Positions 12,469 to 64,000 of a stretch of DNA of 64,000 bases are shown piece after piece. Within the stretch, counting starts at the first letter, position 1; each line of letters opens with the position of its first letter. The notes under the pieces were generated by a model. It ran no database searches, was not told the origin of the DNA, and was given only the letters and a program-made list of their open reading frames with translations. This DNA is from Anaeramoeba ignava BMAN (lineage: Eukaryota; Protista; Anaeramoebae), in NCBI GenBank assembly GCA_028826165.1, contig JAPDFW010000057.1, positions 248,001 through 312,000 of the forward strand, in the 5' to 3' direction. The translations under genes were made by a program, and so were the position numbers.

Positions 12469-14898
12469 ATGGAAATTTATTCGTCATATGAATTTGACAA
12501 AATAAATTCATCAAGACATTCAAAACGAAGATTATATGAAATATATCCTGGAAAGAACACATTTTGCTGCAAAGGATCTATATCAACAGGACCAGATATT
12601 AAAAAACTAATTGGAGCGTTACTTCTTTATAATTTACCAATTTTTATTTTTTTAGGACTTCAAATTTATTGGATTCACCAAAAAAATTCTCAAAATGAAA
12701 AATATATTAATTGGATTGATTCTCATTTTAATCTTAAAGCTTCCCTTTTTTTTTCTTTTTTGTTCTGGTTCTTGACTAATTTGTTTCTTTTGTTGACTAG
12801 CTTCGTAGATCCTGGTGTAATCCAAAGAAAACCCTTCTCTAATAATGTTGCTATTTATTTCCTCTCATTTTTTTATCTTATTCAATCTTTTTATTATTAG
12901 ATTTTCAATTAAAATCAAATTTAGAATTCATTTATAAAATTAAAATCAAAATTAAAATCAAAATTAAAATTAAAATTAAAATTAAAATTAAAATTAAAAT
13001 TAAAATTAAAATTAAAATTAAAATTAAAATTAAAATTAAAATTAAAATTAAAATCAAAAATTAAAATTAAAATTAAAATTAAAATTAAAATTAAAATTAA
13101 AATTAAATTAAAATTAAAATTAAAATTAAAATTAAAATTAAAATTAAAATTAAAATTAAAATTAAAATTAAAATTAAAATTAAAATTAAAATTAAAATTA
13201 AAATTAAAATTAAAATTAAAAATTAAAATTAAAATTAAAATTGAAATTAAAATTAAAAATTAAAATTAAAATTAAATTAAATTAAAATTAAAATTAAAAT
13301 TAAAATTAAAATTAAAATTAAAATTAAAAATTAAAATCAAAATTAAAATTATAATTAAATTAAAATTAAAATTAAAATTAAAATTTAAAATTAAAATTAA
13401 AATTAAAATTAAAAATTAAAATTAAAATTAAAATAAAATTATAATTAAAATTAAAATTAAAATTAAAATTAAAATTAAAATTGAAATCAAAATCAAAATC
13501 AAAATTAAAATTAAAATCAAAATCAAAATTATAATTAAAATTAAAATTAAAATTATAATTAAAATTAAAATTAAAATTAAAATTAAAATTCATTTTAAAA
13601 ATTAAAATTAAAATTAAAATTAAAATTAAAATTAAAATTAAAATTAAAATTAAAATTAAAATTAAAATTAAAATTAAAATTCATTTTAAAAATTAAAATT
13701 AAAATTATAATTAAAATTCAGTTTAAAAATTAAAAATTAAAAATTAAAATTAAAATTCATTTTGAAAATTATAATTAAAATTCATTTTATAATTAAAATT
13801 AAAATTATAAATCAAATCAAAATAACAGGGAAAAAATGAAAATGAAAATTCAAATTCAAAACCAGATTCATGTCATATTAAACATATTAAACTGGAAAAA
13901 GTTTATTGTGGTAAATAAATTTCAAAAATTTCAAAAATTTCAAAAAAATTTCAAAAAAATAATTAAAAAATAATTCAAATTAACAAAGTAACATGTAATA
14001 TTTATCGACCACCAAGAACAAGTCATTGTTCAAACTGCAATAATTGTGTTATGGTTTTTGATCATCATTGTAAATATCAAAAAAAATAAAGAAAAATATT
14101 AAAAAAAAAAAGAAATTGTATTTAATATATAATCAAAATGAAAAAAAAAAAAGGTCCTTGGGTTGGAACTGATATTGGATTAAGAAATTATAGATTTTTT
14201 GCTTCCTTTTTATTTTCCGTTTTAACAACTTCAATTTATACAACTGCACTTTGTGCTTTTTTTTTAATTTCAATTGTTTATGATTTTTTTCAAAAAAAAC
14301 ATCAACAAACTGGATATCCATTATATTTAGCTTTATCTTTTTCTCTTTCGTAGGTTTTTCATAATTTAAATTTATAAATGAATTTTAATCTTTAAATGAA
14401 CTTTAAATTAATTTCAAAAAATTTTCCCTAATTCAAGTCTTATAAGTTTAGGTTTTGGAATTTTTGGAATTTATGCTATTCTCTCTTTAGTTAAATTACA
14501 CTGTTTTTTAATATCTAAAAATTTAACAACAAGAGAATATGTAAAATTAAACTAAAAAATTTTAATTCAAAAATTAATTAATTTAAAAAAATTTCTTTTC
14601 AAATTTAAAGCTCAAAGATATTTATGTTGGAACAGATAATCCATTTGATAACGGTTGTTTATCAAATTGGAAAGAAAAATTTTGTACAAAAATTCCTCCA
14701 AAACAAATCAATTATCGAGCTTTTGCAACTCATAAAGAAATAACTTCACTTGAAAATCAACTTGAAGAAAATAGAGGAGGTTTTCTTGGTTCTAAAAAAG
14801 CAAAAGAAATATTAAAACAAGAAGCTGAAAAAATTAGAATTGAATTCGAAGTAATAGATACTCCTCATATGAATGGCGAATGGATTGAACTTAAATAA
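12469..14898 (+). CDS. DHHC palmitoyltransferase (ERF2/ZDHHC9/14/18-like), 6 exons
   Basis: [42 protein letters not shown]|[21 protein letters not shown] and NPFDNG motifs assembled across GT-AG introns. Confidence 0.9.
12900..13820. repeat. (AAAATT)n hexamer filling intron 1 of the DHHC gene
   Basis: Directly visible. Confidence 0.9.
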
Positions 14899-15082: not shown

Positions 15083-17304
15083 TTATTTTGCTTTTTTATA
15101 TCGATTTTCAAATTTCAAAATGATAAAAACAAAAATTAATAGAATTATAGTGAATAAAATTATTCTTATAAATTGTATAAATTGAGAAGGAAAATTCCGA
15201 TTTCTTAATTGTTGTTTTGATTTTTGTTGGTATTGCTTTAATAATTCAACAATTTCTGTTTGTTTTCTCTTTTTAACAATATCAATTGGCATCATTTTCT
15301 AATTATTAAATTGAATTTAAAATTAAATTATAGTGAAAAGTTTTTGAAGATTACTTCCTTTTGTTTTAAAAGAAATTTAAATTGGAAATTTTAAATAAAT
15401 TCTTTTGAAATATTCATTTCATTTACATCCTAATAATTAAGAGGAAAAATTGATTATTATTTTTGTTCAATTTTTTTATTTTTTGATTTTTTCCAAAATT
15501 TACATTCCAAGCAAAAATATTTGCTCCAGAATCTAAAAGTAATTTTATAACTGAAAAAGATGCTCTATTTTCACACGCATAATGTAGAGGTGTTGCGTTC
15601 TATCCATTTTGATTTTGCATTTTTCAAAATAAAATTTACAAACTAAATTGTACTTTGATTTTTTTATTAATTAATAAACGAAAAAAATACTTGCTAAATT
15701 TCGCATGTTTTTTCCATTAATTTTTAATCAAATGCTTTTGGTATTAAATTTTTTAAACTTAAACAAAGTTAAATACATTCTATATTTTTTTTTTGCAAAA
15801 AAAAGAACAATCCAAATTAGAAAAAAATTATTTCTTTTTTTTTTCTTTTGAATTTTTTTTTCAAACATTTATAGCATTCACATCTGCTCCAGATTTTATT
15901 AAAAGAGAAATGATTTTCTCTTCTTGTTGTGTAAGTAAAGCTAAATGTAATGCTATTCTTTCCTAAAAAATATAAATCAAAAAAAAAAAATTCTTTTTTT
16001 TCGAATTGTTTTTTTTCTATAAAATAAATAAAAACTTTCTAAAGAAAAAGATTATAAGTTTTTTTTCCTGTTGATTTCCATTTTAATTTTTGATAATTTT
16101 ACTTCCTATAAATTTAAATTGGTTTAGAAATTTTTTTCAAAAAAGAAAATTACTCTTATTGATTTTTTTTACATCTTTTTCATTAACATTCGCACCTGTT
16201 GAAATAAGATATTCAATAACATCTGAACTTTCTCCAAACATTAAAGCAAGATGTAAAGGAGAATAATGCTAAATAAATATAAAAAAAAGAAGAGACAATT
16301 TGTTTTTAAAATCGCAAATCGGAAAAAAAATTGAATTAAAAAAATAGCAATAAAAACTTTCTAAAAATTTAAATTTCAAAATGAGAAAATAAATCCAAGT
16401 CTAATTTCAATATTTAAAGATTTTTTACATTCTGTTTTTTTTTGATAAGAAAAGTTTTAATTTAATTTTTCAATTTAAATTTTTCTTTTTCTTTTTCAAC
16501 ATTTAATGCATTAATATCTGCCCCATTTTCTATAAGAAATTTAATAACTTCAAGAGAGTTTCCAAATCCACAAGCAAAATGCAAAGCAGTATAATCCTTT
16601 TTATTGATTAAAAAATGATTAAAAAATTATTCAAAAAAAAATTATTAACAAAAATTTACATCCTTTTTTGAAAATTAATAAAATGAAGTAATTTTGATTG
16701 AGAAAATAATTTAGAAAAAAATTCCTTTTTGGTAATATTCATAAATAATAACAACATCCTATATTTTAGCGTATTATATTTGGAAATAATTCAAATTGCT
16801 ATTTTTGTAAATATTTTATCTTGAATTTTTTTTTTTACACAAATTGCTTTAACATTTGCTCCCTTTTCAACTAAAGCACGAACAATTTGAATGCCTGCAT
16901 TGGTTAAACAAGAAACACCTAATAATGTATCATTCTAAGTATTAATTAAAATTGAAAAAAAATTGGGTAAATATTTATCATTTTTTTTTTTCAAAAAAGA
17001 ATTTATTTTATTCTTTTTTTTTTTGGTTTTAAAATTTGGAACTAATTCTTCTTTTGTTTTACATCCTAAAGAATTTATCAAAAATTTATAAGTAAAATCT
17101 TTTTAAATTATGATTCAAAAACTTTAATTTACTTTCTAAAAAAAGTTGTGATCAAACAGAATAAATTTTTCATTTTATTTTTTTTAATTTATAATTTTTT
17201 AATCATTTTTTTACATCAGTTTGATTTGGATCATATCCTTGATCTAATAATTTTAAAACTAAATCAACATTTCCAAGTTCAATCGCATCAAATAAATCTG
17301 ACAT
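15083..17304 (-). CDS. Ankyrin-repeat protein with C-terminal transmembrane anchor; 19 exons including 12 single-codon microexons
   Basis: Large exons 17304-17215, 16934-16839, 16596-16501, 16268-16173, 15962-15867, 15599-15504 (internal ones all 96 nt) and 15298-15083. Spliced protein: MSDLFDAIELGNVDLVLKLLDQGYDPNQTD|K|D|NDTLL...GANVKAIC|D|D|DYTALH...GADINALN|N|K|HYSPLH...GANVNEKD|E|K|ERIALH...GADVNAIN|N|Q|NATPLH...GANIFAWN|D|E|KMMPID...FIRIILFTIILLIFVFIILKF. Confidence 0.85.
15355..17135 (-). other. Twelve 3-nt microexons (AG|NNN|GT) in tandem pairs
   Basis: 17135-17133 AAA, 17065-17063 GAT, 16758-16756 GAT, 16662-16660 GAT, 16431-16429 AAT, 16360-16358 AAA, 16105-16103 GAA, 16038-16036 AAA, 15779-15777 AAT, 15693-15691 CAA, 15429-15427 GAT, 15357-15355 GAA. 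Confidence 0.85.
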
Positions 17305-31226: not shown

Positions 31227-31319
31227 TTATAAAAACAATAAAAAAAATGAAAGAAAAATGAAAATGAAAAAAAATCGAAAAAATTTAAATCCAATTTTTA
31301 AATTCAATTTTAAATCGAA

Positions 31320-34255
31320 ATCAAATATTTAAATCAAATATTTAAATCAATTATTTAAATAAAATATTTAAATCAAATACTTAAATCAAATATTTAAATC
31401 AAATATTTAAATCAAATATTTAAATCAAATTTAAATCAAATACTTAAATCAATATTTAAATCAAATATTTAAATCAAATATTTAAATCAATATTTAAATC
31501 AAATATTTAAATCAAATATTTAAATTAAATATTTAAATCAAATATTTAAATCAAATATTTAAATCAAATATTTAAATCAAATATTTAAATCAAATATTTA
31601 AATCAAATATTTAAATCAAATATTTAAATCAAATATTTAAATCAAATATTTAAATCAAATATTTAAATCTAATATTTAAATCAAATATTTAAATCAAATA
31701 TTTAAATCAAATATTTAAATCAAATATTTAAATCAAATATTTAAATCAAATATTTAAATCAATATATTTAAATCAAATATTTAAATCAAATATTTTAAAT
31801 CAAATATTTAAATCAATATTTAAATCAAATATTTAAATCAAATATTTAAATCAAATATTTAAATCAAATATTTAAATCAAATATTTAAATCAAATATTTA
31901 AATCAATTATTTAAATCAAATATTTAAATCAAATATTTAAATCAAATATTTAAATCAAATATTTAAATCAAATATTTAAATCAAATATTTAAATCAAATA
32001 TTTAAATCAAATATTTAAATCAAATATTTAAATCAAATATTTAAATCAAATATTTAAATCTATTTAAATCAAATATTTAAATCAAATATTTAAATCAAAT
32101 ATTTAAATCAAATATTTAAATCAAATATTTAAAATCAAATATTTAAATCAAAATATTTTAAATCAAATATTTAAATCTAATATTTAAATCAAATATTTAA
32201 ATCAAATATTTAAATCAAATATTTTAAATCAAATATTTAAAAAAAATATTTAAATCAAATATTTAAATCAAATATTTAAATCAAATATTTAAATCAAATA
32301 TTTAAATCAAATATTTAAATCAAATATTTAAATCAAATATTTAAATCAAATATTTAAATCAAATATTTAAATAAAATATTAAAATCAAATATTTAAATCA
32401 AATATTTAAATCAAATATTTAAATCAAATATTAAAATCAAATATTTAAATCAAATATTTAAATCAAATATTTAAATCAAATATTTTAATAAAATATTTAA
32501 ATCAAATATTTAAATCAAATATTTAAATCAAATATTTAAATCAAATATTTAAATCAAATATTTAAAATTTAAAAAAATATTTAAATTATTTTTAAATCAA
32601 ATATTTAAATCAAATATTTAAATCAAATATTTAAATCAAATATTTTAAATCAAAATATTTAAATTAAATATTTTAAATCAAATATTTAAATCAAATATTT
32701 AAATAAAAATATTTAAATCAAATATTTTTAAATAAATATTTAAAAAATATTTAAATCAAATATTTAAATCAAATATTTAAATCAAATATTTAAATCAAAT
32801 ATTTTAAATCAAATATTTAAATCAAATATTTAAATCAAATATTTAAATCAAATATTTAAATCAAAATATTTAAATCAAATATTTAAATCAAATATTTAAA
32901 TTAAATATTTAAATCAAATATTTAAATCAAATATTTAAATCAAATATTTAAATCAAATATTTAAATCAAATATTTAAATCAAATATTTAAATCAAAAATA
33001 TTTAAATCAAATATTTAAATCAAATATTTAAAATATTTAAATCAAATATTTAAATCAAATATTTAAATCAAATATTTAGATCTAAATCAAATATTTAAAT
33101 CAAATATTTTAAATCAAATATTTAAATCAAAATATTTAAATCAAATATTTAAATCAAATATTTAAATCTCCAATATTTAAAAAATATTTAAATCAAATAT
33201 TTAAATAAAAAATATTTAAATCAAAATTATTTAAAAAATCTAATATTTAAATCAAATATTTAAATCAAAATATTTAAATCAAATATTTAAATCAAATATT
33301 TAAATCAAATATTTAAATCAAATATTTAAAAATCTATTTATTTCAAATTTAAAATATTTTAAATCAAATATTTAAATCAAATATTTAAATCAAATATTTA
33401 AATAAATAAATTTTAAAAAATATTTAAAATTAAATCGAAATTTATTTTAAATCAAATATTTTAAATTAATATTTAAATCTAAATATTTAAATCAAATATT
33501 TAAATAAAATATTTAAAAAAAATATTTAAATCAAAAATATTTTAAATCAAATTATTTAAATTTAAATTAAATATTTAAATCAAATATTTAAATCAAATAT
33601 TTAAATCAAATATTTAAATAAAATATAAATTTAAATCAAATATTTAAATCAAATATTTAAATAAAATATTTAAAATCAAATATTTTAAATCAAATATTTA
33701 AATCAAATATTTAAATCAAATATTTAAATCAAATATTTAAATCAAATATTTAAATCAAATATTTAAATCAAATATTTAAATCAAATATTTTAAATCAAAT
33801 ATTTAAATCAAATATTTAAATCAAATATTTAAATCAAATATTTAAATCAAATATTTAAATCAAATATTTAAATCTAATATTTAAATCAAATATTTAAATC
33901 AAATATTTAAATCTAATATTTAAATCAAATATTTAAATCAAATATTTAAATCAAATATTTAAATCAAATATTTAAATCAAATATTTAAATCAAAATATTT
34001 AAAATCTAATATTTAAATCAAAAATTTTAAATCTAATATTTAAATCAAATATTTAAATCTAATATTTAAATCAAATATTTAAATCTAATATTTAAATCAA
34101 ATATTTAAATCAAATATTTAAATCAAATATTTAAATCAAATATTTAAATCAAATATTTAAATCAAATATTTAAATCAATTATTTAAATCAAATATTTAAA
34201 TAAAATATTTAAATCAAATATTTAAATCAAATATTTAAATCAAATATTTAAATAA
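31320..34255. repeat. ~2.9 kb 13-bp satellite (ATATTTAAATCAA)n between divergently transcribed genes
   Basis: Directly visible, highly homogeneous tandem array. Confidence 0.95.
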
Positions 34256-34500
34256 AATTTTTAAATAAATTTTGAGAATAGAAAAATCAAAAAATTATGC
34301 TCAAAAATATTTTAAAGAAAAATAAAATCAAAAAATTGTTAAAAATTTTTCACTATCAAAAAAAAAATAAGATCAAATAAAGAAAAAAAAAAGTCTAATT
34401 TATCCAAAACTCTACAATTTTTTTGATTTTATTTTTTGTTATAGAAAGTAAAAATAAAATCAAAAATACTTAGATCAATAAATCCATTTTTTTTTTACAA

Positions 34501-36613: not shown

Positions 36614-39600
36614 TCAACAACAACCTCCACCTGTTCCTTTTTGTTGTTCTCCATTTTTTGGTGATTCATCGAGAACTCGAATTGATTTTGTTTTCTGAAG
36701 CTGTGGTTGTTTTTGTTTTGAAGTTATAGGATTTTTTTCATCATTCTTTTTGTAAATTTCTATAAAAACAAATTTTATTATAAATTTTGTTTTAAATTTC
36801 ATTTTAAATTTCATTTTAAATTAATTTTTGGATTTAATTTTAAATTTTGTTTTAAATTTCATTTTAAATTTCATTATAAATTTCATTATAAATTTCATTT
36901 TAAATTTCATTATAAATTTCATTTTAAATTTCATTATAAATTTCAATTTAAATTTCATTTTAAATTTTATTATAAATTTTGTTTTAAATTTCATTATAAA
37001 TTTTGTTTTAAATTTCATTTTAAATTTCATTTTAAATTTCATTATAAATTTCATTATAAATTTCATTTTAAATTTCATTATAAATTTTGTTTTAAATTTC
37101 ATTATAAATTTTGTTTTAAATTGTTTTAGTTGATAATAAATTAATAAATTACCAGCAGCAAGGTTTTATAAATAACTTTTAAATTTTTTATAAGTTTTTG
37201 TTTTAAATTTCATTATAAATTTTTGTTTTGAAATTTCATTATAAATTTCATTTTAAATTTATTTCAAATTATATTAAATTTTTTCTTAAGCATTTTTTTA
37301 TAAACAAGTCTTTTTTAAATTATAAATTTTGTTTTAAATTTCATTTTAAATTTCATTTTAAATTTTACTAAATTTTATTATAAATTTTATTATAAATTTT
37401 ATTATAAATTTCATTTTTAAATTTATTTTTAAATTTCATTATAAATTTCATTATAAATTTCATTTTAAATTTCATTATAAATTTCATTTTAAATTTCATT
37501 TTAAATTTCATTATAAATTTTATTATAAATTTTATTATAAATTTTATTATAAATTTCATTATAAATTTCATTTTAAATTTCATTTTAAATTTCATTATAA
37601 ATTTCATTATAAATTTCATTTTAAATTTCATTTTAAATTTCATTATAAATTGTTTTAAATTATTTTAGTTGATAATAAATTAATAAATTACCAGCAGCAA
37701 GGTTTTCAAATAACTGTGAAATATTTGAACCAGTTTTTGTCGGAAGTATATATATGAGGAGCATTTATACTTTGAGCATATCTAAAAATATAAAGCAATG
37801 AAGAAATGAATATACTCAAATTATATTGAAAAATAATTAATTTACTCTAAAGCATCTTTTTCAGAAACAAGTCTTTTTGTTAAATCAGATTTATTTCCTG
37901 CAATAATAAGTACAACATCATTTCCAATCATTTGAATTAACTCTTTAACCCAATCTTTAACTCTCTTAAAACTGTTCTCATCAGTGACATCATAAACAAG
38001 AATAGCTCCTATAATTAAATTTCATTATAAATTTCATTATAAATTTCATTTTAAATTTCATTATAAATTTCATTTTAAATTTCATTATAAATTTCATTTT
38101 AAATTTCATTTTAAATTTCATTATAAATTTCATTTTAAATTTCATTTTAAATTTCATTTTAAATTTCATTTTAAATTTCATTATAAATTTCATTTTAAAT
38201 TTCATTTTAAATTTCATTTTAAATTTCATTTTAAATTTCATTTTAAATTTCATTTTAAATTTCATTTTAAATTTTATTATAAATTTCATTTTAAATTTTG
38301 TTTTAAATTTCATTTTAAATTTCATTATAAATTTCATTTTAAATTTCATTATAAATTTCATTTTAAATTTCATTTTAAATTTCATTTTAAATTTCATTTT
38401 AAATTTCATTTTAAATTTCATTTTAAATTTCATTTTAAATTTCATTTTAAATTTCATTTTAAATTTCATTTTTAAATTTCATTTTAAATTTCATTTTAAA
38501 TTTCATTATAAATTTCATTTTAAATTTCATTTTAAATTTCATTATAAATTTCATTATAAATTTCATTTTAAATTTCATTTTAAATTTCATTTTAAATTTC
38601 ATTTTAAATTTCATTTTAAATTTTAAATTTTGTTTTAAATTTTGTTTTAAATTTCATTTTAAATTTCATTTTAAATTTCATTTTAAATTTCATTTTAAAT
38701 TTCATTATAAATTTCATTTTAAATTTCATTTTAAATTTCATTTTAAATTTCATTTTAAATTTTGTTTTAAATTTTGTTTTAAATTTCATTTTAAATTTTG
38801 TTTTAAATTTCATTTTAAATTTTGTTTTAAATTTCATTTTAAATTTCATTTTAAATTTCATTTTAAATTTCATTTTAAATTTCATTTTAAATTTCATTTT
38901 AAATTTCATTTTAAATTTCATTTTAAATTTCATTTTAAATTTCATTTTAAATTTCATTATAAATTTCATTTTAAATTTTGTTTTAAATTTCATTTTAAAT
39001 TTCATTATAAATTTCATTTTAAATTTCATTTTAAATTTTATTTTAAATTTCATTTTAAATTTCATTTTAAATTTCATTTTAAATTTCATTTTAAATTTCA
39101 TTATAAATTTCATTTTAAATTTCATTTTAAATTTCATTTTAAATTTCATTTTAAATTTCATTTTAAATTTTATTTTAAATTTCATTTTAAATTTCATTTT
39201 AAATTTCATTATAAATTTCATTTTAAATTTTGTTTTAAATTTTGTTTTAAATTTCATTATAAATTTTGTTTTAAATTTCATTTTAAATTTATAATTAAAT
39301 TTCATTATAAATTTCATTTTAAATTTCATTTTAAATTTTATTATAAATTTCATTTTAAATTTTGTTTTAAATTTTGTTTTAAATTTCATTATAAATTTCA
39401 TTTTAAATTTCATTTTAAATTTTGTTAAATTTCATTTTAAATTTTCATTTTAAATTTCATTTTAAATTTCATTTTAAATTTCATTTTAAATTTCATTTTA
39501 AATTTCATTATAAATTTCATTATAAATTTCATTATAAATTTCATTATAAATTTCATTATAAATTTCATTATAAATTTCATTATAAATTTCATTTTAAATT

Positions 39601-40120
39601 TCATTTTAAATTTTGTTATAAATTTTATTTTAAATTTTGTTTTAAATTTCATTTTAAAAAAATAATACCTTTTGCTTCACGATAATACATTGGATTTACT
39701 GCACGAAATTGTTCTTGTCCAGCTGTATCCTAATTAAAAACAATAGAATAAAATTTTTTGATGAAAAAAAAAGAGAAAAAAATAGAAAAAAGATTTTTTA
39801 CCCAAATTGAAAGTTTTATTTTGTTTTTATTGTATTCAACTTCTTTTTCCATATAAGATGCATGTTTTGTTCTTGGAATATCTGTTTCAAAAGAATTATT
39901 CATATATCGAAGAAGAATACTTGTTTTCCCAACTCTTCCTTTTAAATTATTTATTTTATATATTATTATTTTATTATTTTATAAATTTTTTTTGGATTGG
40001 ATTTTAAATCAAAATTAAATTGAAAATTTGGATATTTTGATTTTGTATTTTTGTTTTATTTTGTGTTTTTGATAAAAAAAATTTACCTTCACCTAATAAA
40101 ACAACTTTATAAGCAATCAT
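36614..40120 (-). CDS. RAB21: Rab GTPase, Rab21-like; 6 exons; apparent +1 frameshift near 37740
   Basis: YKVVLLGE|GRVGKTS, IW|DTAGQEQF...YYREAK|GAILVYDVT, IAGNKSDL and TS(A)KTG.NI motifs; C-terminus GGGCC. Confidence 0.8.
38012..39660. repeat. 12-bp tandem repeat (AAATTTCATTTT/AAATTTCATTAT)n filling a Rab intron; same unit at 36780-37650 and in G-alpha intron 6
   Basis: Directly visible; the MKFK ORFs in the track are translations of it. Confidence 0.9.
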
Positions 40121-40212: not shown

Positions 40213-41985
40213 ATGAGACGTACTGGTAAAAAAGGTCCTTTGTTTGGTATTAATCTAGATAATAATTCAACTAGAATTCCTATTGTTATTCAAGATACTG
40301 TTGAACATTTAATGAAAAATGATAGTAAATCAAATTCTTTTTTTTTTTGAAATTTTTTTCTCCTTTTAAATTAAATAAAATGTATTTTAATTGAAAACAA
40401 ATTTGCAAAAAAAAAGATATTGATGCAGAAGGAATTTTTCGAATTTCAGGAAGTTCAATTCAAATTCAAGAACTTAAACGAAAATATGATAACGGTATTT
40501 AATTTAATTTTAATTTTTAATTTAATTTTATTTTTATTTTTAATTTTATTTTTAATTTTTTAATTTTATTTTAGGGAAAACACCAAATTTAGATAAAGTT
40601 TCAAGTCCTCATATTGTTTCTGGTTTATTAAAATTATTTTTAAGAGAATTACCTGAACCTCTTCTTTCTTTTGAATTATATGATGTTTTTGTTGCTGTTC
40701 ATTGTAAAAAAATTAAATTAAAAATAAATTAAAATTAAATTAAATTTAAAATTCATTTTAAAAAATAATTCAATAGCAATTAATGATGCTCAACAAAGAC
40801 TTGATAGAATTAAAAAAGTTCTTCATGAAATGCTTCCAATCGGTAGACAAGCTTTATTAAAATATTTGATGAATTTTCTTTGTAAAAAAAATTAAAAAAT
40901 TAAAAATTAAAAATTAAATTAAAAAATTTTATTTTTAATTTTAATTTTTATTTATATTTATAAAAGATAATGTATCTCAACGTGTTGAAGCAAATAAAAT
41001 GAGTGCAGCTAATTTGGCAATTGTTTTTGGCCCAAATATTTTAAGACATGAAAAAGATAGTATGGAAATTATGATAACAGAAACTCCAGCTGTTACTGGA
41101 ATAACTTTTACATTTATTGAACAATATCATTTTATTTTTGATGTAAAAATTAAAATTCATTTATAAATTTAAATTCATTTATAAATTTAAATTCATTTAT
41201 AAATTAAAATTCATTTATAAACTAAAATTAAAATTCAATTATAAACTAAAATTCATTTATAAATTTAAATTAAAATTCATTTATAAATTTAAATTAAAAT
41301 TCATTTATAAATTTAAATTAAAATTCATTTATAAATTAAAATTCAATTATAAATTTAAATTCAATTATAAATTTAAACTAAAATTCATTTATAAACTAAA
41401 ATTCATTTATAAATTAAAATTAAAATTCATTTTAAATTAAAATTAAAATTCATTTTAAATTAAAATTAAAATTCATTTATAAATTAAAATTCAATTATAA
41501 ATTTAAAATTCATTTAAAAATTAAAATTCATTTATAAATTTAAATTCAATTATAAATTAAAATTCATTTATAAATTTAAATTCATTTATAAATTTAAATT
41601 CATTTATAAATTAAAATTCATTTATAAATTTAAAATTCATTTATAAATTAAAATTAAAATTCATTTATAAATTTAAAATTAAAATTCATTTATAAATTTA
41701 AATTATTATTGAATTTTTAAGTCAATGGAAATTCCAGAACCTCCAAAAGAAAAAACAAAGAAAGAATTAAAAAAAGAAGAAAAATTATTAAAAAAACAAG
41801 AAAAGAATGAAAAACGAAAGAAAAATGAAGAAACAAATGAAATTCCACAAAAAACAGCACCAAGTCTCCCAAAAAAACCACCACAACTTCCATCAAGACC
41901 TCCTGAAATTAATTTAAAAATTTTATCGTTAATTAATGATATAGAAAAAAGAAATCGTCCTTTACCTCCTGATCCAATATTTTGA
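40213..41985 (+). CDS. RhoGAP-domain protein with Pro-rich C-terminal tail, 6 exons
   Basis: LFGI.L...IPIVI, EGIFRISG (arginine finger), GLLKLFLRELPEPLL and NKMSAANLAIVFGPNIL motifs. Confidence 0.9.
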
Positions 41986-52432: not shown

Positions 52433-54212
52433 TTAATTTTGATTATTAAATTTGCTAATTAATAAATCAAATAAATTTGGATTTGTTTGATTTAATTGAA
52501 AATAATCAATTCCAATTTGAATTTCATCAATGATTTCTTGTGTAATTTGAATTTCATTTTTAATTTGATTTGAATAAATCCAATATTCAAATATTTGAAA
52601 TGATTTATTACTTAATTCACTATAATCTGTAACTTTATTGGATGTATCTTTTGTAACAGATAAAAACATTCCTCGATATAATTCACTTCTCATTATTAAT
52701 ATTAATTTAGGGAATTTATATTGTTTTTCTTTTCTTTCAATAATAAAATCTTTTTCATTTTCATTTTCATTTAAATAAATTCTTTTCATTGTTTCTTCAA
52801 TTTTTTCATTTAAATTTATAATTTCTTTAATTTCAGAATATAATTTTGGATTTATTTTGGAATTATTTGAATAAATCATTTCAAATATTTGATTTGATTC
52901 TTTAATTGATTTTTTTGAAATAATTTCTTGAAGTTTTTCAATTTCATTTTCATTTTGATTTTGATTTAATCTATATTTCAATATTAATTTATGAGCTTCA
53001 ATTATTTCTCCATTTTCTGTTTTAAATGAAATATCACAAAATTCTTTTCTTTAAATAGTTTTATCAAATCTTCTTCAAGATTAGAAGAAGAAAGAGTAGA
53101 ATAATAAAGAAATGAATCTCCATCACCACAATAAACATGATAATTAGAAATATCTTCATTAAATCTTAATTTAGAAAGTTCAATTTGAATTGGAATTAAT
53201 TGATCATTTTGTATCTTCAATTCCTAATTGGCCATATTCATTTATTCCAAATACTATTAATTTTGGATTGGAAGTTAAAATCAAAGTATGATCAAATCCA
53301 ACAGAAAATTCAATAATATCATCATTTTCAAATAAAGATGATTTGATTTCAGTAAATTCATAAGCATCTTCGTTTTGTCCAAGTCCATTATATGGATGAT
53401 ATCCACATGAATAAAGTTTTCTTTTTGGATTTTCATTTTCATCTTCGATCAACATTATTGAATGAGCACTTCCGTATTGAATATCAATTATTTTACATTT
53501 TGGAATATTTTCGGATTTTGGTTAATTTTTGGATTTTTGTTTCTTTTTTTCTTGATTCTCCTAATCCAAGTTGACTAGAATAATTATATCCACATCCAAA
53601 TAATTCTTGATTTGAATTTAAAAGAAAAACATGATTTGAATAAATTCCCGAAAATATTTTAGAAACATTTTTCATCATTAAAATTGGTTTTTCTGTTTTT
53701 TTGAAGTGTTTTAGAATCAAAACCAAGTTGACCATTTTCATTTGAGCCAAATCCATAAACATTTTGATTTGAAGTTAATAAATAAATTGAATGAGCTCCA
53801 GAAACAATATCTTGAATTATTCTATCATTTTTATCTTCAATTAATGATGAAATATTGATAAATTTATTTGGATTATTTGGATTAATATCATATCCTTTGG
53901 CAAATACATTTCCTTCTATTGTTAAAATAGCTACATTTTCAACACCAACAGTTACTTTTTGAATATTTTCTTCAATTTGGATTTTTGAGGATTTTGTTTT
54001 GAATTATTTTCATTTAAATATTCTATTGCTTTTCCATTTTTAAAAAGGAAAATTGTTGAATAATAACTTGATGAAATTTGTTTAATTTGTTTTTCATTTT
54101 CATTTTCATTTTCATTTTCAAATTTAAATTGAATTGGTTTTATTATTATTTCTGGTTCATTTTTTATAAGTTTTTGTTTTTCATTTAAACCAAAAAATAT
54201 AATTTCATTCAT
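52433..54212 (-). CDS. RCC1-repeat + BTB protein, tandem copy 1 (several frameshifts; stop before CAAX)
   Basis: RCC1 repeats (GCGYNYSSQLGLG, FSVGFDHTLIL) and BTB-like parts (AHKLIL, LIMRSELYRGMF) spread over several ORFs. Confidence 0.75.
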
Positions 54213-54254
54213 TTTTAAAAAAGAAAAAAAATGAAAAAATGAAAAATTAAAAAA

Positions 54255-56187
54255 TTAAAAAATTAAACATTTTTCTTTTCTTTTTTTTTGATTTTGATTT
54301 TGGATTTGATTTTGAATTTGATTTTGATTTTGATTTTGAATTTGATTTTGATTTTGGATTTGATTTTGATTTTGATTTTGAATTTGATTTTGATTTTGAT
54401 TTTGATTTTTAAATTTGCTAATTAATAAATCCAATAAATTTGGATTTGTTTGATTTAATTGAAAATAATCAATTCCAATTTTAATTTCATCAATTATTTC
54501 TTGTGTAATTTGAATTTCATCTTTAATTTGATTTGAATAAATCCAATATTCAAATATTTGAAATGATTTATTACTTAATTCACTATAATCTGTAACTTTA
54601 TTAGATTTATCTTCTGTTACAGATAAAAACATTCCTCGATATAATTCACTTCTCATTATTAATATTAATTTAGGAAATTTATATTGTTTTTCTTCTCTTT
54701 CAATTATAAAATCTTTTTCATTTTCATTTTCATTTTCATTTAAATAAATTCTTTTCATTGTTTCTTCAATTTTTTCATTTGAATTTATAATTTCTTTAAT
54801 TTCAGAATATAATTTTGGATTTATTTTAGAATTATTTGAATAAATCATTTCAAATATTTGATTTGATTCTTTAATTGATTTTTTTGAAATAATTTCTTGA
54901 AGTTTTTCATTTTCATTTTGATTTTGATTTAATCTATATTTCAATATTAATTTATGAGCTTCAATTATTTCTCCATTTTTCGGTTTTAAATGAAATATCA
55001 CAAAATTCTTTTCTTCGAAATAGTTTTATCAAATCTTCTTCAAGATTGGAAAAAGAAAGAGTAGAATAATAAATAAATGAATTTCGATATCCACAATAAA
55101 TATGATAATTAGAAATATCTTCATTAAATCTTAATTTAGAAAGTTCGATTTGAATTGGAATTAGTTGATAATTTATGTTATCTCCAGTTCCTAATTGGCC
55201 AAAAGAATTATCTCCAAATCCAATTAATTTTGGATTGGAAGTTAAAATCAAAGTATGATAAAATCCAACAGAAATATCAAGAATATCATCATTTTCAAAT
55301 AAAGATGATTTTATTTCAGTAAATTCATAACTATCTTGATTTTTGCCAAATCCATTACATTTATAATCTCCACATGAATAAAGTTTTCTTTTTGGATTTT
55401 GATTTTCATTTTCATTTTCATTTTCAATTAACATTATTGAATGAAAATTTCCACATTGAATATCAATTATTTTGCCTTTTGGAATATTTTGGATTTTGGT
55501 TAATTCTTTGGTTTTTATTTCTCTTATTGATTCTCCTAATCCAAGTTGACTAAATTGATTATATCCGCATCCAAATAATTCTTGATTTGAATTTAAAAGA
55601 AAAACATGAGATGAAGAATTTCCTGAAAATATTTTAGAAACATTTTTCATCATTAAAATTGGTTTTTGTGTTATTTTAAGTGTTTTAGAATCAAAACCAA
55701 GTTGACCATATTCATTTGAACCAATTCCATAAACATTTTGATTTGAAGTTAATAAATAAATTGAATGAGCTCCAGAAACAATATCTTGAATTATTCTATC
55801 ATTTTTATCTTCAATTAATGATGAAATATTGATAAATTTATTTGGATTATTTGGATTAATATATCTTCCTTTGGCAAATACATTTCCTTCTATTGTTAAA
55901 ATAGCTTCATTTTCAAAACCAACAGTTACTTTTTGAATATTTTCAATTTGGATTTTTTGAGGATTTTGTTTTGAATTATTTTCATTTAAATATTCTATTG
56001 CTTTTCCATTTTTAAAAAGGAAAATTGTTGAAAAATCGCTTGATGAAATTTGTTTAATTTGTTTTTCATTTTCATTTTCATTTTCATTTTCAAATTTAAA
56101 TTGAATTGGTTTTTTGATAACTGAATCAATTTTATATTTGATAAGTTTTGGATTTTCATTTAAACCAAAAAATAAACAATCATTCAT
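54255..56187 (-). CDS. RCC1-repeat + BTB protein, tandem copy 2 (one frameshift at ~54980), ends in KKRKEKCLIF CAAX
   Basis: ORFs 54961-56187 and 54255-55001 overlap at a homopolymer. Confidence 0.8.
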
Positions 56188-56244
56188 TTTTAAAAGGAAA
56201 AAAATGAAAAAATGAAAAAATTAAAAAATTAAAAAATTAAAAAA

Positions 56245-58083
56245 TTAAAAAATTAAACATTTTTCTTTTCTTTTTTTTTGATTTTGATTTTGATTTTGAT
56301 TTTGGATTTGATTTTGATTTTGATTTTGATTTTGATTTTGATTATCAAATTTGTTAATTAATAAATCAAATAAATTTGGATTTGTTTGATTTAATTGAAA
56401 ATAATCAATTCCAATTTTAATTTCATCAATTATTTCTTGTGTAATTTGAATTTCATCTTTAATTTGATTTGAATAAATCCAATATTCTAATAATTGAAAT
56501 GATTTATTACTTAATTCACTATAATCTGTAACTTTATTAGATTTATCATTTGTTACAGATAAAAACATTCCTCGATATAATTCACTTCTCATTATTAATA
56601 TTAATTTAGGAAATTTATATTGTTTTTCTTTTCTTTCAATTATAAAATCATTTTCATTTTCATTTAAATAAATTCTTTTCATTGTTTCTTCAATTTTTTC
56701 ATTTGAATTTATAATTTCTTTAATTTCAAAATATAATTTTGGATTTATTTTGGGATTATTTGAATAAATCATTTCAAATATTTGATTTGATTCTTTAATT
56801 GATTTTTTTGAAATAATTTCTTGAAGTTTTTCATTTTCATTTTGATTTTGATTTAATCTATATTTCAATATTAATTTATGAGCTTCAATTATTTCTCCAT
56901 TTTCGGTTTTAAATGAAATATCACAAAATTCTTTTCTTCGAAATAGTTTTATCAAATCTTCTTCAAGATTGGAAGAAGAAGGAGGAAAATAAAGAAATGA
57001 TTTGAAATATCCACAAAAGACATGATAATTAGAAATATTTTCATTAAATCTTAATTTAGGAAGTTCAATTTGAATTGGAATTAGTTGTGCTTCTGTTATA
57101 CCATTCCCTAATTGACCATAAGTATTATCTCCAAATCCTATTAATTTTGAATTGGAAGTTAAAATCAAAGTATGATCAAATCCAACAGAAAAATCAAGAA
57201 TATCATCATTTTCAAATAAAGATGGTTTTATTTCAGTAAATTCATAAGTATCTTCATCAAAAATGCCAAGTCCATTATATTTGTTATGCCCACATGAATA
57301 AAGCCTTCTTTTTGCTTGAAATTCAACCAACATTATTGAATAATAAAATCCTGTTTTAATATCAATTATTTTGCCATTTTGGAATATTTTGGATTTTGGT
57401 TAATTCTTTGATTTTTGGTTCTTTTCTTGATTCTCCTAATCCAAGTTGACTAGAATAATTATATCCGCATCCAAATAATTCTTGATTTGAATTTAAAAGA
57501 AAAACATGATTTGAATAATTTCCTGAAAATATTTTAGAAACATTTTTCATCATTAAAATTGGTTTTTCTGTTTTTTCAAGTTTTTTAGAATCAAAACTAA
57601 GTTGGCCAGAAGTATTTGAACCAATTCCATAAAGCATTTTGATTTGAAGTTAATAAGTAAATTGAATGAGCTCCAGAAACAATATCTTCAATTATTCTAT
57701 CATTTGTATCTTCAATTAATGATGAAATATTGATAAATTCATTTGGGTTTTTGGATTAACTTCTTTTCCTTTGGCAAATACATTTCCTTCTATTGTTAAA
57801 ATAGCTTCATTTCCAAAACCAACAGTTACTTTTTGAATATTTTCAATTTGGATTTTTTCAATTTTTTGTTTTGAATCATTTTCATTTAAATATTCTATTG
57901 CTTTTCCATTTTCAAAAAGGAAAATTGTTGAAAAAAAACCTATTGAAATTTGTTTAATTTGTTTTTCATTTTCATTTTCATTTTCATTTTCAAATTTAAA
58001 TTGAATCGGTTTTTTTATTATTTCTGGTTTATTTTTGAAAAGTTTAGGTTTATCATTTGACCAAAAAATATAATTTCATTCAT
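56245..58083 (-). CDS. RCC1-repeat + BTB protein, tandem copy 3 (several frameshifts), ends in CAAX
   Basis: Paralogous to copy 2 throughout; ATG at 58083. Confidence 0.75.
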
Positions 58084-58141
58084 TTTTAAAAAAGAAAAAA
58101 ATGAATTTTAATTTTTCATTTTTTTCATTTTTTTTTTCAAA

Positions 58142-60189
58142 ATGTTAAATAAATTTGAACAAGAATCTCTTTTAAAATCTGTAATGCAAAATGATCTTTT
58201 GAAAGTGGTCGAATTTTTAAAAATAGATGATTCCTCACTTCTGAAAGAAACTGATTCAAATGGAAATACAGCTTTACATTGGGCAATTCGAAATTCAAAT
58301 CCAGAAATTTTTCACTTATTAATCTCAAAAGAAATTTTCATCAATTCTCAAAATTTCTTTAAAGAAACTCCTCTTCATTTTGCTTGTAAATTTGATAATG
58401 CAACTTTTGTGTATCATTTATTAAAAAAATCTGCAAGTCTTGAAATTGTATTTCTTTTCATTTCATTTCTAAATAATCTTTAAATTTAAAAAACAAAAAA
58501 AAATTTTTATCAAAATTGGATTAACGAAAAAATTTTTTAAAGAAAGAAAAAAAATTTTTTTTTCCACAAAAAAATTTTTAAAAAAAATACAAAAACCAAA
58601 TCAACTAATTTTTGTTTTGTATTTATTTAGGAAGATTCTTCTTTTTTGCTTCCAATTCATATTGCTGCTAAATCCAACTCTGTTTTATCTTTAAAATTGA
58701 TCCTTGAGCATTCACCAAATATGAAAAATTTACCGCAAAAAAAAACAAATAGAACACCTCTTCATTGGGCAGCTCTTTCTAGTAAAATAGACGCAGCTAT
58801 TGCTTTAATAGAAGCAGGAGCGTTGATTGATATGCAAGACAGTAACGGAAGCACTCCTCTTCATCTAGCCGCAAAAACAGGATCGCCAATGGTTGATTTA
58901 CTGATGATGGCTGGAGCCGATCCAAAAATCACAAATCAAAATGACAAAACACCACGGGATATTGTCGTTGAAAAAAAACACTTTCCATCAAGGATTGTTA
59001 TCGATTCCATATTGCGAACTCGTGCTCGATTCCCAGAGCTTTCTTTGCCAAAAAACAGGGAAGATGTTGAAAATAGCCACGTGGAAATTAATCAAGAAGT
59101 GGAACAAAATCGAATACTTCAAGAATTCAAAAAAAGAAACCGAAAAAGAGGAGAAAACTTATCATTTTTGTTTTTTTTGATGACACCCATCTTGTTTCTT
59201 TCGGTGCATTTTATATATGGATTGCTACCTTTTTATTTATCCGGTATTTTAATAACTGGAAGCTTTGTTATGGTCAATATTTTTGTTATAAATAATTGGA
59301 GAGCAAGAGGAAGACTTTTTCTTCCCAAAAATTCTTTCAATTTTTCAATTACATTCACGCTTATGAGCTTATTATTATTTACTCATTGGTTTTATGCATT
59401 TGGAGCGACATTCAATTCACATCCAATTTTAAATATTATTCTATTTGGAATTGAGATTGTTATTATTTTTTCAATTAAAAACACTGTACTTAGAAATCCA
59501 GGAAAAATTGAAGGAGAAAGTGAATCATTAGAAGTAAATTTAATGAAAATATTTTAAATAATAATTAATAATTAATAATAATATTTAATTTTAATAATAC
59601 TTAATAGAACGCAATCCAAAAATATTCTATTGTAACCCAAAAAGAATATTGTTATACTTGCAAAATGAGAAAACCTTTAAGAAGTAAACACGATACAACT
59701 CTTGGTTATTGTGTTGCTCGTTATGACCACTATTGCTCTTGGATGTACAACGTAATCGGCTTTGATAATCACAGAGAATTCATTAGTTCGATCATCTCTT
59801 CAACTTTAGCAACAATTCTTTTGTACATCTTAATTTTTTTTGATTTATTTGATTCTTTTGGAAAACTTGAACAAAACGGAACAGAAAAAATTTCACTCAT
59901 TTCTTTTTTTGCAAACCAATATCAATGGTGTTCAGGCTTATTTCTAATTTGTATTATTTATTTCTCCTGGCTTTCTCTGCTTGTTTTTGGTCAATTAAAT
60001 TTGATTAGTAAAAATTTGACAACAAACGAAAGAATCAATTTTAAAAGATATTTCCCTTTAGGAAAAAATCCTTATAATCTTGGTACATTCAATAATTTTG
60101 CTCAGTTTTTCCGTTGGAAAAATTTTATTGATTGGAAAATTGCTTTTCCATATTCAACTTTTCCAAATAGAATGAGAAATGATTTTTAA
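58142..60189 (+). CDS. AKR1: Ankyrin-repeat DHHC palmitoyltransferase (Akr1/ZDHHC17-like), 3 exons
   Basis: Ankyrin repeats (GNTALHWA, RTPLHWAA, GSTPLHLAA), TM helices, KPLRSKH...CVARYDHYCSW (DHYC variant as in yeast Akr1) and NLTTNERIN. Confidence 0.85.
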
Positions 60190-60269
60190 TTACAATTTTG
60201 AATAAAAAAAATTTTTTCACTTTTTTTTTCATTTTTCTCTTTTCTTTTTTATTCTTTTTTTATTTAGAA

Positions 60270-62221
60270 ATGAACCCCTTTTTTTTAACAACTTTTCTTT
60301 TTATATTTGTTTTTGCATTTTTTTTGATCAAATTTAGAAAAAGTAAGTAAATTTAAAATTAAAACCCAAATCCAAAATAGATTGAGAAATTTAAATTGAC
60401 TTTCTCAAAAAAATTAAAAAATAAAAAATCGAAAATTTTGTTTCACTTTTTTTTTAATAGAGTTTTTTCAAAAAAAAGAAAACCGAAGCCCTGAACAAGC
60501 TTTAGTTAATTCAATAATTCATGGAACTAAAGATTATATTGAATTAATTAAAAAGGGAACAAGTCCAAATATAAAATGTGAAAAAGTAAAACAAAAATTT
60601 AATTTAAAATTTAATTTAAAATTTAATTTAAAATCATGATAATTATTTTAAGGGCTTTCCTGCTTTAGTAATTGCTGCTATGCATAATAGACCTGAAATT
60701 GTCAAAAATTTAATCAATTTAGGAGCAAATATTGAAGAAAAAGATAAAGTGATTTTTTAAAATGTTTTTTTTATTTTGAAATTAAATTTTTTCTTCTCAA
60801 AAAGTGGGTAAATTTTTGTTGAGAAAAAATGAACCTTTCTTATTTTTCTTTCTTTAGGGAATAACTCCTTTAGGTTGGTGTTGTTTTTTTGGAATATTTG
60901 AATCAGCAAAAATTTTGATTGAAAACGGAGCCAATATTAATTTTAAATCAATTGTAAAACAATTTCTTATTCAAATTAAAAAAATAAACCAAATTAATAT
61001 TTGAATCTCTCCTTTTTCTTCATAAATCAAAAAATCAATTTGAATTTAGTATGTAAATTTAAAGAAAAAACAAAACAAAAGAAAAGGTAACAATTCTTAC
61101 CATTTCTTTTTTTTTGTTGAATAAATCAAAAGGGGAATAATAGTTTGATTTTAACTGCAAGAAAAGGAAATTATCAATTATCAAAATATTTAGTCGAAAA
61201 TGGAATCGAAGTTCATTCTCCAAATTTAGTAACTTTTAAGAATCAAAAAAAAAAAATTTGTAATATTATTATATTGATTTATTAGACTGTAAATTTTGTT
61301 TCCATTTGAATTCATTTTCAACAGAAATTAATTCATTGATTCATTTCAAATTAGAATTCTACAGCACTTCATTGTGCTTGCATTGCTGGATCTTTTGAAT
61401 CTGTGCAATTATTTGTGGAAAATGGAGCTCAATTGGATATCATTGATTCAGTAAAGAAAAAATAATCAAAAAAAAAAGGAATTGTTTATTGATTTTTGAA
61501 TAAACAAAAAAAAGGATGTAAAAGAAGAAAAAGGATAAATAAATTTTGAATTTAATATTCTTTTTTTTTTTTTTTGATTAGGGAATGACTCCTTTATTTT
61601 TTGCTGTGAAATTACAACATATTCCGATTACTGAATATCTTTTAAGTAAAGGAGCTAATCCAAATATTGGTCGAAGAGTAAAAATTAATTTCATTCCATT
61701 TTTTTTTCTTTTCAAAACAAAATCAAATAATTTTCAATCAAAAAAATTACTAGAAAAATTCTCCTCTTGGATCTGCTTGTAAAAAAGGGAATTTGCAAAT
61801 TATTGAAGATTTACTTAAATATGGAGCAAATGTGAATTTTGAAAATTCGGTATTTTTCTTTTAATAACACAAACAATCAATACAAAATTAATAAAAAACT
61901 TCCATTTCATTTTAGAAAGTAAATTAATTAATTTTGAATAAGAAGGAATATTTTTTTTAAATTTTTTATTTTTGATTTAAAAAAGGGATTTGTTCCACTT
62001 TTTTTGGCAATTCAGAACAAAAAAATTGATGTTATAAAATTATTAATTCGATATCACGCAAAACTTCCACTTTCAAATGTTTGTCTTTTTTTTTTTTTAA
62101 TAAATCAAATAACAAATCTTTTCATTTTTTTTTTTTTGATTAAAAATTTTAGGAAACAATTTTGGATGAATTTTTAAAAGATTCTCAAATAGCAAATCTT
62201 TTATCTGATCTTGAAAAATGA
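60270..62221 (+). CDS. Ankyrin-repeat protein with N-terminal signal/TM anchor; 15 exons including five single-codon microexons
   Basis: MNPFFLTTFLFIFVFAFFLIKF...GTSPNIKCEK|GFPAL...GANIEEKDK|W|GITPLG...GANINFKSI|Y|GNNSLI...EVHSPNL|T|NSTALH...GAQLDIIDS|D|GMTPLF...GANPNIGRR|KNSPLG...GANVNFENS|K|GFVPLF... Confidence 0.85.
60805..61918 (+). other. Five 3-nt microexons (AG|NNN|GTAAA)
   Basis: 60805-60807 TGG, 61050-61052 TAT, 61286-61288 ACT, 61515-61517 GAT, 61916-61918 AAA. Confidence 0.85.
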
Positions 62222-62408
62222 AAAATGAAAAATGAAAATTAATTTTGATTTTAATTTTAATTTTGATTTTAATTTTAATTTTAATTTTAATTTTAATTTT
62301 GATTTTGATTTTGATTATTAAATTTGTTAATTAATAAATCAAATAAATTTGGATTTGTTTTATTTTGATTTTAATTTTTAATTTTTAATTTTAATTTTAA
62401 TTTTAATT

Positions 62409-64000
62409 TTAATTTTGATTATTAAATTTGTTAATTAATAAATCAAATAAATTTGGATATGTTTGATTTAATTGAAAATAATCAATTCCAATTTCAATTT
62501 CTTCAATTATTTCTTGTGTAATTTGAATTTCATTTTTAATTTGATTTGAATAAATCCAATATTCAAATATTTGAAATGATTTATTACTTAGTTCACTATA
62601 ATCTGTAACTTTATTTGATTTATCATTTGTTACAGATAAAAACATTCCTCGATATAATTCACTTCTCATTATTAATATTAATTTTGGAAATTTATATTTC
62701 TTTTCTTTTCTTTCAATAATAAAATCTTTTTCATTTTCATTTTCATTTAAATAAATTTTTTTCATTGTTTCTTCAATTTTTTCATTGGAATTTATAATTT
62801 CTTTAATTTCAGAATATAATTTTGGATTTATTATTCTGTTTGAATAAATCATTTCAAATATTTGATTTGATTCTTTAATTGATTTTTTTGAAATAATTTC
62901 TTTAAGTTTTTCATTTTGATTTTGATTTTGATTTAATCTATATTTTAATATTAATTTATGAGCTTGATATTATTTCTCCATTTTCGGTTTTAAATGAAAT
63001 ATCACAAAATTCTTTTCTTCTGAAATAATTTTATCAAATCTTCTTCAAGATTGGAAAAAGAAGGAGGAGAATAATAAAGAAATGATTTGTTTTCTCCACA
63101 AGAAATATGATAATTGGAGATATCTTCATTAAATCTTAATTTAGGAAGTTCAATTTGAATTGGAATTTTTTGATTCCAATTTGTATTTCCAGTTCCTAAT
63201 TGACCATACCAATTACTTCCAAATCCTATTAATTTTGAATTAGAAGTTAAAATCAAAGTATGTTCATTTCCAACAGAAAAATCAATAATATTATCATCAT
63301 TTTCAAATAAAGATGATTTGATTTCAGTAAATTCATAAGTATATTCATTTTTGCCAAGTCCATTATATCGATAATCACCACATGAATAAATTTTTCTTTT
63401 TGGATTTTCATTTTCATTTTCATTTTCATTTTCATTTTCATTTTCAATCAACATTATTGAACAAGAGCTTCCACATTGAACATCAATTATTTTGCCTTTT
63501 GGAATATTTTGGATTTTGGTTAATTTTTGGATTTCTGTTTCTTCTTTTCTTGTTTTTCCTAATCCAATTTTACCATATCCATTATTCCCGCATCCAAATA
63601 ATTCTTGATTTGGATTTAAAAGAAAAACATGATTTGAATCAGTTCCTGAAAATATTTTAGAAACATTTTTCATCATTAAAATTGGTTTTTCTGTTTTTTT
63701 AAGTGTTTTAGAATCTAAACCAAGTTGGCCATATTGATTTGAACCAATTCCATAAGCATTTTGATTTGAAGTTAATAAGTAAATTGAATTGTATCCTGAA
63801 ACAATATCTTCAATTATTCTATCATTTGTATCTTCAATTAATGATGAAATATTGATAAATTCATTTGAATTATTTGAATTAATATCTCTTCCTTTGGCAA
63901 ATACATTTCCTTCTTTTGTTAAAATAGCTTCATTTTCAAAACCAATAGTTACTTTTTGAATATTTTTAATTTGGATTTTTTCAGGTTTTTGATTTGACCA
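62409..64000 (-). CDS. RCC1-repeat + BTB protein, copy 4 (5' end beyond the window; frameshifts at ~62965-63020; no CAAX)
   Basis: Paralogous to the 52-58 kb array. Confidence 0.75.

Follow-up and report, generated by a model that had tools for sequence, protein, structure and literature searches.

Single-codon exons in ankyrin-repeat genes are already known. The Drosophila gene sowah (FBgn0036302) contains the microexons ME119, ME3, ME2 and ME19, and in the available tables of the source its 3-nt exons ME2 and ME3 stand on the constitutive list, which corresponds to PSI = 1 by that paper's definition (PMC8042270, Tables S4 and S5). In truffles (Tuber), extensive alternative splicing of mini-exons that number in the tens and have the size of a codon is described for nank, an expanded NLR family (Iotti 2012, as cited in PMC4986451 and PMC13449251). 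In the LRR-ROCO and NB-ARC-TPR receptors of brown algae, each repeat occupies its own in-frame exon, and no single-codon exons are described in the available part of that source (PMC13449251). Conserved small coding microexons of plants, for which the accessible text of PMC8831610 mentions neither ankyrin repeats nor pairs of exons per repeat, have been missed by annotation, and wrong protein models resulted, as is also the case for the public protein P0122 at the present locus. For Anaeramoeba, no report of microexons was found in the literature, bioRxiv supplements being outside the scope of the search, and the words microexon, ankyrin and splicing have no occurrence in the main text of PMC11550330, 4 of whose 15 supplements were outside that scope.

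The gene described here (gene 1) belongs to Anaeramoeba ignava, an anaerobic, metamonad-related amoeba, and lies in a window of 64,000 nt, which is the whole stretch of DNA that was analysed. Its coding sequence of 822 nt is predicted to contain twelve exons of one codon each, which makes it an extreme and very regular case. Consecutive 3-nt exons also occur in the fly gene sowah, with two in one gene, when the genes are compared as layouts only. There, however, the available description gives one short chain in a gene with kilobase introns, whereas the introns of gene 1 are 56-128 nt long. The Gly and Tyr codons of the sowah exons suggest positions 4 and 5 of the repeat, whereas gene 1 isolates positions 2 and 3 at every junction, and its consecutive units complete a loop of fixed length. 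By this comparison, gene 1 most likely works like sowah, with no membership in that family claimed.

The likeness to nank, as far as the citing papers describe it, consists in exons the size of a codon within the ankyrin-repeat genes of a microbial eukaryote, with 12 units in gene 1 and 5 in a second gene of the window (gene 2). A surplus of codon exons over loop places, which is our reading of "tens of" mini-exons in those papers, is absent in gene 1, where two units serve two places. Unlike nank, gene 1 carries a membrane anchor and no NACHT domain; caps, repeats and anchor take up its whole 273-aa frame and leave no room for a ROC-COR or NB-ARC domain. With the brown-algal receptors it shares the arrangement of one repeat per symmetric exon, in this case a 96-nt phase-0 exon. 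Unlike those receptors, in the part of the source available, it lacks ROC-COR and NB-ARC domains, spare intronic repeats and near-identical repeats.

The layout of gene 1 is real and unusual, within a class of exons that has precedents. It means that the spliceosome must join one-codon exons correctly between introns with lax signals. The presence of one codon per slot also offers a clean test of whether such exons start as neutral and constitutive and are later turned, in some lineages, into generators of diversity. At the units, the public model of gene 2 is incorrect, and searches of the protein collections did not find the last exon of gene 1; therefore, more such genes may hide in Anaeramoeba annotations.

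Architecture of gene 1

The positions of the features are given in Table 1. The splicing of both genes was inferred from DNA, and the exon models are predictions. The model of gene 1 has 19 predicted exons and 18 introns, all of phase 0. The exons comprise a first one of 90 nt, five of 96 nt, a last one of 216 nt and, each between AG and GT as predicted splice signals, twelve units of 3 nt; together they give a 273-aa frame without internal stop. The span 15299-17214, which the original prediction had singled out, extends exactly from the first donor to the last acceptor of this gene.

Table 1. Predicted features of the two ankyrin-repeat genes in the window.
Feature	Position	Strand	Description
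Gene 1, ankyrin-repeat gene	15083-17304	-	273 aa, Anaeramoeba ignava
Gene 1 exon 1, 90 nt	17215-17304	-	start codon, N-terminal capping repeat, no signal peptide (hydropathy)
3-nt unit, junction 1, position 2	17133-17135	-	Lys; AG/GT flanks
3-nt unit, junction 1, position 3	17063-17065	-	Asp; AG/GT flanks
96-nt repeat exon 1	16839-16934	-	divergent; alone no Pfam match; alignable to the four others
3-nt unit, junction 2, position 2	16756-16758	-	Asp; AG/GT flanks
3-nt unit, junction 2, position 3	16660-16662	-	Asp; AG/GT flanks
96-nt repeat exon 2	16501-16596	-	Pfam Ank 37.5 bits
3-nt unit, junction 3, position 2	16429-16431	-	Asn; AG/GT flanks
3-nt unit, junction 3, position 3	16358-16360	-	Lys; AG/GT flanks
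96-nt repeat exon 3	16173-16268	-	Pfam Ank 28.7 bits
3-nt unit, junction 4, position 2	16103-16105	-	Glu; AG/GT flanks
3-nt unit, junction 4, position 3	16036-16038	-	Lys; AG/GT flanks
96-nt repeat exon 4	15867-15962	-	Pfam Ank 24.3 bits
3-nt unit, junction 5, position 2	15777-15779	-	Asn; AG/GT flanks
3-nt unit, junction 5, position 3	15691-15693	-	Gln; AG/GT flanks
Thirteenth AG-NNN-GT	15640-15642	-	Phe codon, at junction 5
96-nt repeat exon 5	15504-15599	-	Pfam Ank 31.3 bits
3-nt unit, junction 6, position 2	15427-15429	-	Asp; AG/GT flanks
3-nt unit, junction 6, position 3	15355-15357	-	Glu; AG/GT flanks
Gene 1 last exon, 216 nt	15083-15298	-	capping repeat, C-terminal hydrophobic anchor, short basic tail, stop
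Gene 2	60270-62221	+	15 exons encoding 316 aa; signal-anchor at the N-terminus, six repeat exons of 96 nt and five 3-nt units
Gene 2 single 67-nt intron without unit	60586-60652	+	both hairpin residues on upstream exon
Gene 2 3-nt unit, position 3	60805-60807	+	Trp
Gene 2 3-nt unit, position 3	61050-61052	+	Tyr
Gene 2 3-nt unit, position 3	61286-61288	+	Thr
Gene 2 3-nt unit, position 3	61515-61517	+	Asp
Gene 2 single 76-nt intron without unit	61678-61753	+	hairpin one residue short
Gene 2 3-nt unit, position 3	61916-61918	+	Lys

The Gly position of the motif D-x-x-G-x-TPLH opens each 96-nt exon of gene 1 and the Asp position closes it, so that two residues are missing from the large exons at each of the six ankyrin-repeat junctions, and every one of these junctions holds two 3-nt units. 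Because the large exons stop at Asp and resume at Gly, the units encode ankyrin positions 2 and 3, a mapping that rests on alignment to DARPin chains. The isolated codons are therefore the two residues after Asp at 6/6 junctions, as had been predicted. Taken alone, all but one of the five 96-nt exons score above the Pfam cut-off of 21.1 bits for the ankyrin repeat (PF00023), with scores of 24.3-37.5 bits. A second GT lies 3 nt past the first unit of junction 2; these tandem donors (16753-16758, minus strand) could add an in-frame Val.

The C-terminal anchor lies at about 15116-15172, with a 19-residue hydropathy of 3.23, and the short basic tail behind it (15083-15115, minus strand) resembles that of tail-anchored proteins. 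The product is predicted to be a tail-anchored ankyrin protein with a cytosolic binding surface. Hydropathy gives one terminal hydrophobic stretch in each of the two proteins, in agreement with the earlier claim of a terminal anchor. Gene 1 lacks a signal peptide and basic residues stand beside the anchor of gene 2, on which basis both ankyrin domains are predicted to be cytosolic. This orientation argues against recognition of prey at the cell surface, which had been proposed as a possible function.

In searches with the last exon of gene 1, none of 88 candidates scored and no match was found among 1.84 billion representatives; its Atlas matches consisted of short clusters bearing no name or of weak leads to ankyrin, and recognition stayed under the threshold. 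The profile of the repeat exons retrieved long ankyrin proteins, of which 8 of 120 among the matches listed were from A. ignava, gene 1 itself being absent. By exact look-up, one of ten ORFs of the window was present in the protein collection.

The AG-NNN-GT units and their splice sites

The window is very A+T-rich eukaryotic DNA, and an A+T content of 80.65% is given for the A. ignava genome in the part of PMC11550330 consulted. The six intervals between the large exons of gene 1 contain 13 AG-NNN-GT (2, 2, 2, 2, 3 and 2 per junction). In 5000 dinucleotide shuffles of these intervals, the mean was 0.94 and the maximum 5, and no shuffle had at least two AG-NNN-GT at all six junctions. Spacers of 0, 2, 4 or 7 nt between AG and GT do not occur in the gene-1 junctions. 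The control introns, drawn from four ordinary genes, contain no AG-NNN-GT (12 introns were located, with 1,728 nt in all; a 13th was not located and contributed nothing). In gene 2, five units were found in eight intervals against a null mean of 0.49, and none of 3000 shuffles reached five. The shuffles and the control introns rule out chance as the origin of the unit pattern. A general excess of 3-nt spacers is likewise ruled out, the window-wide count showing no excess of spacer 3 between AG and GT.

The thirteenth AG-NNN-GT of gene 1 is probably due to chance, about one being expected. As a spare exon it is rejected, since it would need introns of 48 and 40 nt, whereas the shortest of the 32 modelled introns has 50 nt. 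Most of ten further AG-NNN-GT sites inspected in the window lie inside ordinary exons or non-coding DNA. An isolated AG-AAA-GTAAAA at 34445-34447 (plus strand), which follows a long repeat-filled stretch and precedes an NPC1-like exon by about 100 nt, may be another 3-nt exon.

The introns beside the units are of ordinary length: the 32 modelled introns have a median length of 69 nt; several ordinary introns measure 68-92 nt, and ordinary introns of about 150-410 nt also occur in the window. Kilobase arrays of 5-13-nt A+T repeats (31279-34270, 36770-39658 and others) lie in many cases inside the introns of ordinary genes; the introns of both microexon genes all stay at 50-128 nt. The length of the interval between large exons follows the number of units, with 67-76 nt for none, 109-179 nt for one and 205-280 nt for two.

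The splice sites of the units look like those of the large exons and are not weaker: GTA donors are found at 14/17 units vs 11/15 large exons, and TAG acceptors at 12/17 vs 11/15. Splice signals are lax at 15299-17214, 60343-62152 and 40325-40966, where many of the acceptors are rich in A, carry AAG and lack a pyrimidine tract, and where GTT and GTG donors are found beside GTA. Similarity among introns of one class does not exceed that among the others (mean z 0.47 vs 0.59), which rules out recent intron duplication. The 96-nt exons of gene 1 are 46-66% identical to each other, and those of both genes 39-66%.

Gene 2 and its public protein model

The 96-nt exons of gene 2 end one residue later than those of gene 1, and a single unit supplies position 3. 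Five junctions require one unit and carry it, another requires none and carries none, and the last junction is degenerate and lacks a unit. At the junction of 61678-61753, a 3-nt unit and one intron appear, from the sequence, to have been lost. All three of the 96-nt exons tested (of six) reach the PF00023 cut-off. The two genes, otherwise divergent, have two intron positions in common within the same 64-kb window. The expectation that the hairpin residues lie on exons of their own thus extends to gene 2 for position 3 at five junctions, but position 2 is never isolated there, and two hairpin junctions besides the degenerate last one have no unit. All introns in the repeat regions of both genes are of phase 0, as had been stated; only the first intron of gene 2, outside the repeats, is of phase 1.

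The public protein P0122, which its source assigns to A. ignava, matches an exon of the window at 100%. It is a fusion (58142-62221, plus strand) of an ankyrin-DHHC palmitoyltransferase gene (58142-60189) with gene 2, and it omits the first exon and most of the 3-nt units of the latter. At three unit-bearing junctions it joins the large exons directly, and at the other two it runs into introns; P0122 says nothing reliable about unit inclusion. The fold of its ankyrin part, computed from the single sequence with most units absent, has a mean pLDDT of 66 and a pTM of 0.65. In this fold, which has no included-form control, the 10-residue blocks at the skipped junctions score 63, 70 and 68/65, the naturally short junction scores 76, and residues 188-192 fall below 50.

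The ankyrin-DHHC gene beside gene 2 has no intron at the hairpin positions. Both microexon genes adjoin a DHHC palmitoyltransferase gene (about 12469-14898 and 58142-60189, both on the plus strand), gene 1 lying tail to tail with its neighbour and gene 2 just downstream of its own; this may be coincidence or common history. The region 52433-64000 also contains, on the minus strand, several tandem RCC1-BTB gene copies, some with broken frames, which are pseudogenes or reflect homopolymer errors.

Inclusion, skipping and origin of the one-codon exons

Judged from the sequence, the units are probably constitutive microexons that became fixed at an indel-tolerant loop and were spread by old repeat duplication. 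All twelve would be included each time, and a single normal 273-aa protein would result, with some low-level skipping expected as noise. Each intron of 56-128 nt would be recognised alone, by intron definition, so that exon size would be no barrier and a 3-nt exon would be what remains between two independently recognised introns. As to their origin, an intron may already have been present before the hairpin Gly, and one or two more may have arisen one codon upstream, through capture of an AG-NNN-GT inside the intron or through duplication of intron and codon with one codon lost afterwards. Events of this kind could survive at the hairpin because it tolerates a change of one residue, and the unit would afterwards have multiplied through old repeat duplication and been maintained by purifying selection. 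It would be because variable loops tolerate intron turnover, and not because splicing varies them, that the codons stand at variable positions. The introns retain no surviving trace of this proposed origin.

At all six gene-1 junctions, the units present are the residues needed. With both units, the linker from GAxxN to TPLH has 7 residues, as in 261/306 natural repeats, a set obtained by motif search in the 112 top matches to gene 1's own profile and hence favouring canonical repeats. In the same set, 18/306 linkers are one residue longer and 12/306 are shorter, 7/306 by one residue; without units, the linkers would have 5 residues (4/306) or 6 (7/306). Eight A. ignava proteins were counted apart, with 15/17 linkers of length 7, and P0121 and P0122 were left out. 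The AG and GT of all 12 units have remained intact while the surrounding introns diverged, which implies use, and short flanking introns ease microexon inclusion according to the available part of PMC8378409. Old intron gain amplified by repeat duplication, which the original prediction had named as its alternative, fits these results better than the recognition repertoire that it preferred.

The codons themselves are uniform. All 12 unit residues of gene 1 are D, E, K, N or Q, compared with a background of 62% and 46% at those positions (naive p about 6e-4, with no correction for A+T bias or common descent). A is the middle base of all 12 codons, vs 51/160 codons in the large exons, and the need for polar residues accounts for this only in part. 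These positions had been described as hypervariable; across the five repeats of gene 1, however, the unit columns have mean BLOSUM62 scores of 2.0 and 1.1, and nine large-exon columns, with scores below 0, vary more.

Against constitutive inclusion stands the gene-2 hairpin that has no unit and is one residue short, which indicates that a skipped state can be tolerated and leaves room for functional skipping. Among the internal microexons of the fly, moreover, 283/411 are alternative, and of the first 10 listed exons of 3 nt, 7 sit on the alternative sheet in the tables available (PMC8042270), so that the prior for exons of this size is not "constitutive". Skipping of codons, either regulated or stochastic, with re-pairing when a whole repeat exon is left out, could yield a set of hairpin variants that stay in frame and tune binding, for instance to proteins of symbionts or of the host at a membrane. 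Phase-0 introns throughout the repeats keep any skip in frame, as had been pointed out, and give four states per junction, or 4^6 = 4096 by arithmetic. Positions 2 and 3 lie on the binding face (PMC4308713, in the part available), Trp and Tyr are among the residues of the gene-2 units, codon-sized exons yield such variants in truffle nank genes in the accounts of PMC4986451 and PMC13449251, and A. ignava houses bacterial symbionts, as stated in the available text of PMC11550330. Nevertheless, this explanation is unlikely. There are no spare codons, and deletion is possible but substitution is not within an intact repeat array; skipping would produce hairpins of rare lengths, and re-pairing would change little among twelve polar turn residues. 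Splice sites no weaker than the others also speak against it. Positions 2 and 3 are indeed randomised in the ankyrin library, as had been noted, but the library described in the same part of PMC4308713 also randomises 5, 10, 13 and 33, and these four of the six lie on large exons. Together with the lack of recent exchange, these results do not support the combinatorial binding repertoire that had been envisaged.

A bolder version, which we rate as no less doubtful, would make every gene-1 hairpin a two-codon splice switch that reshapes a cytosolic binding face on a membrane of a symbiont-housing amoeba, and would make the layout a precursor of truffle-type surplus arrays through tandem duplication of intron and codon. 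If this were true, the three states found in gene 2, where a junction needs no unit, has one or has lost it, would show this turnover at different moments.

Diversification could also act in evolution, with the introns allowing single codons or whole repeats to recombine between repeats or paralogues. The symmetric phase-0 modules and the intron positions common to two divergent genes of one window are consistent with this, and brown-algal receptors exchange one-repeat exons according to the available part of PMC13449251. Such shuffling is nevertheless very unlikely here: the introns show no similarity that would speak for exchange, exon identity across both genes is limited to the range given above, the unit columns vary less than the nine large-exon columns, and no close paralogue of the last exon of gene 1 was found in searches that are weak for a biased 71-aa query. 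It is more improbable still that the units are relics and that each interval of 205-280 nt is removed as one intron, with the hairpins of the protein shortened. P0122 does join large exons directly at three unit-bearing junctions, and ordinary introns of comparable size exist in the window. However, unused AG-NNN-GT would decay, yet 12/12 are retained in introns that are unrelated otherwise; the length of the interval goes with the unit count; and all six linkers would be reduced to the 5-residue length seen in only 4/306 repeats.
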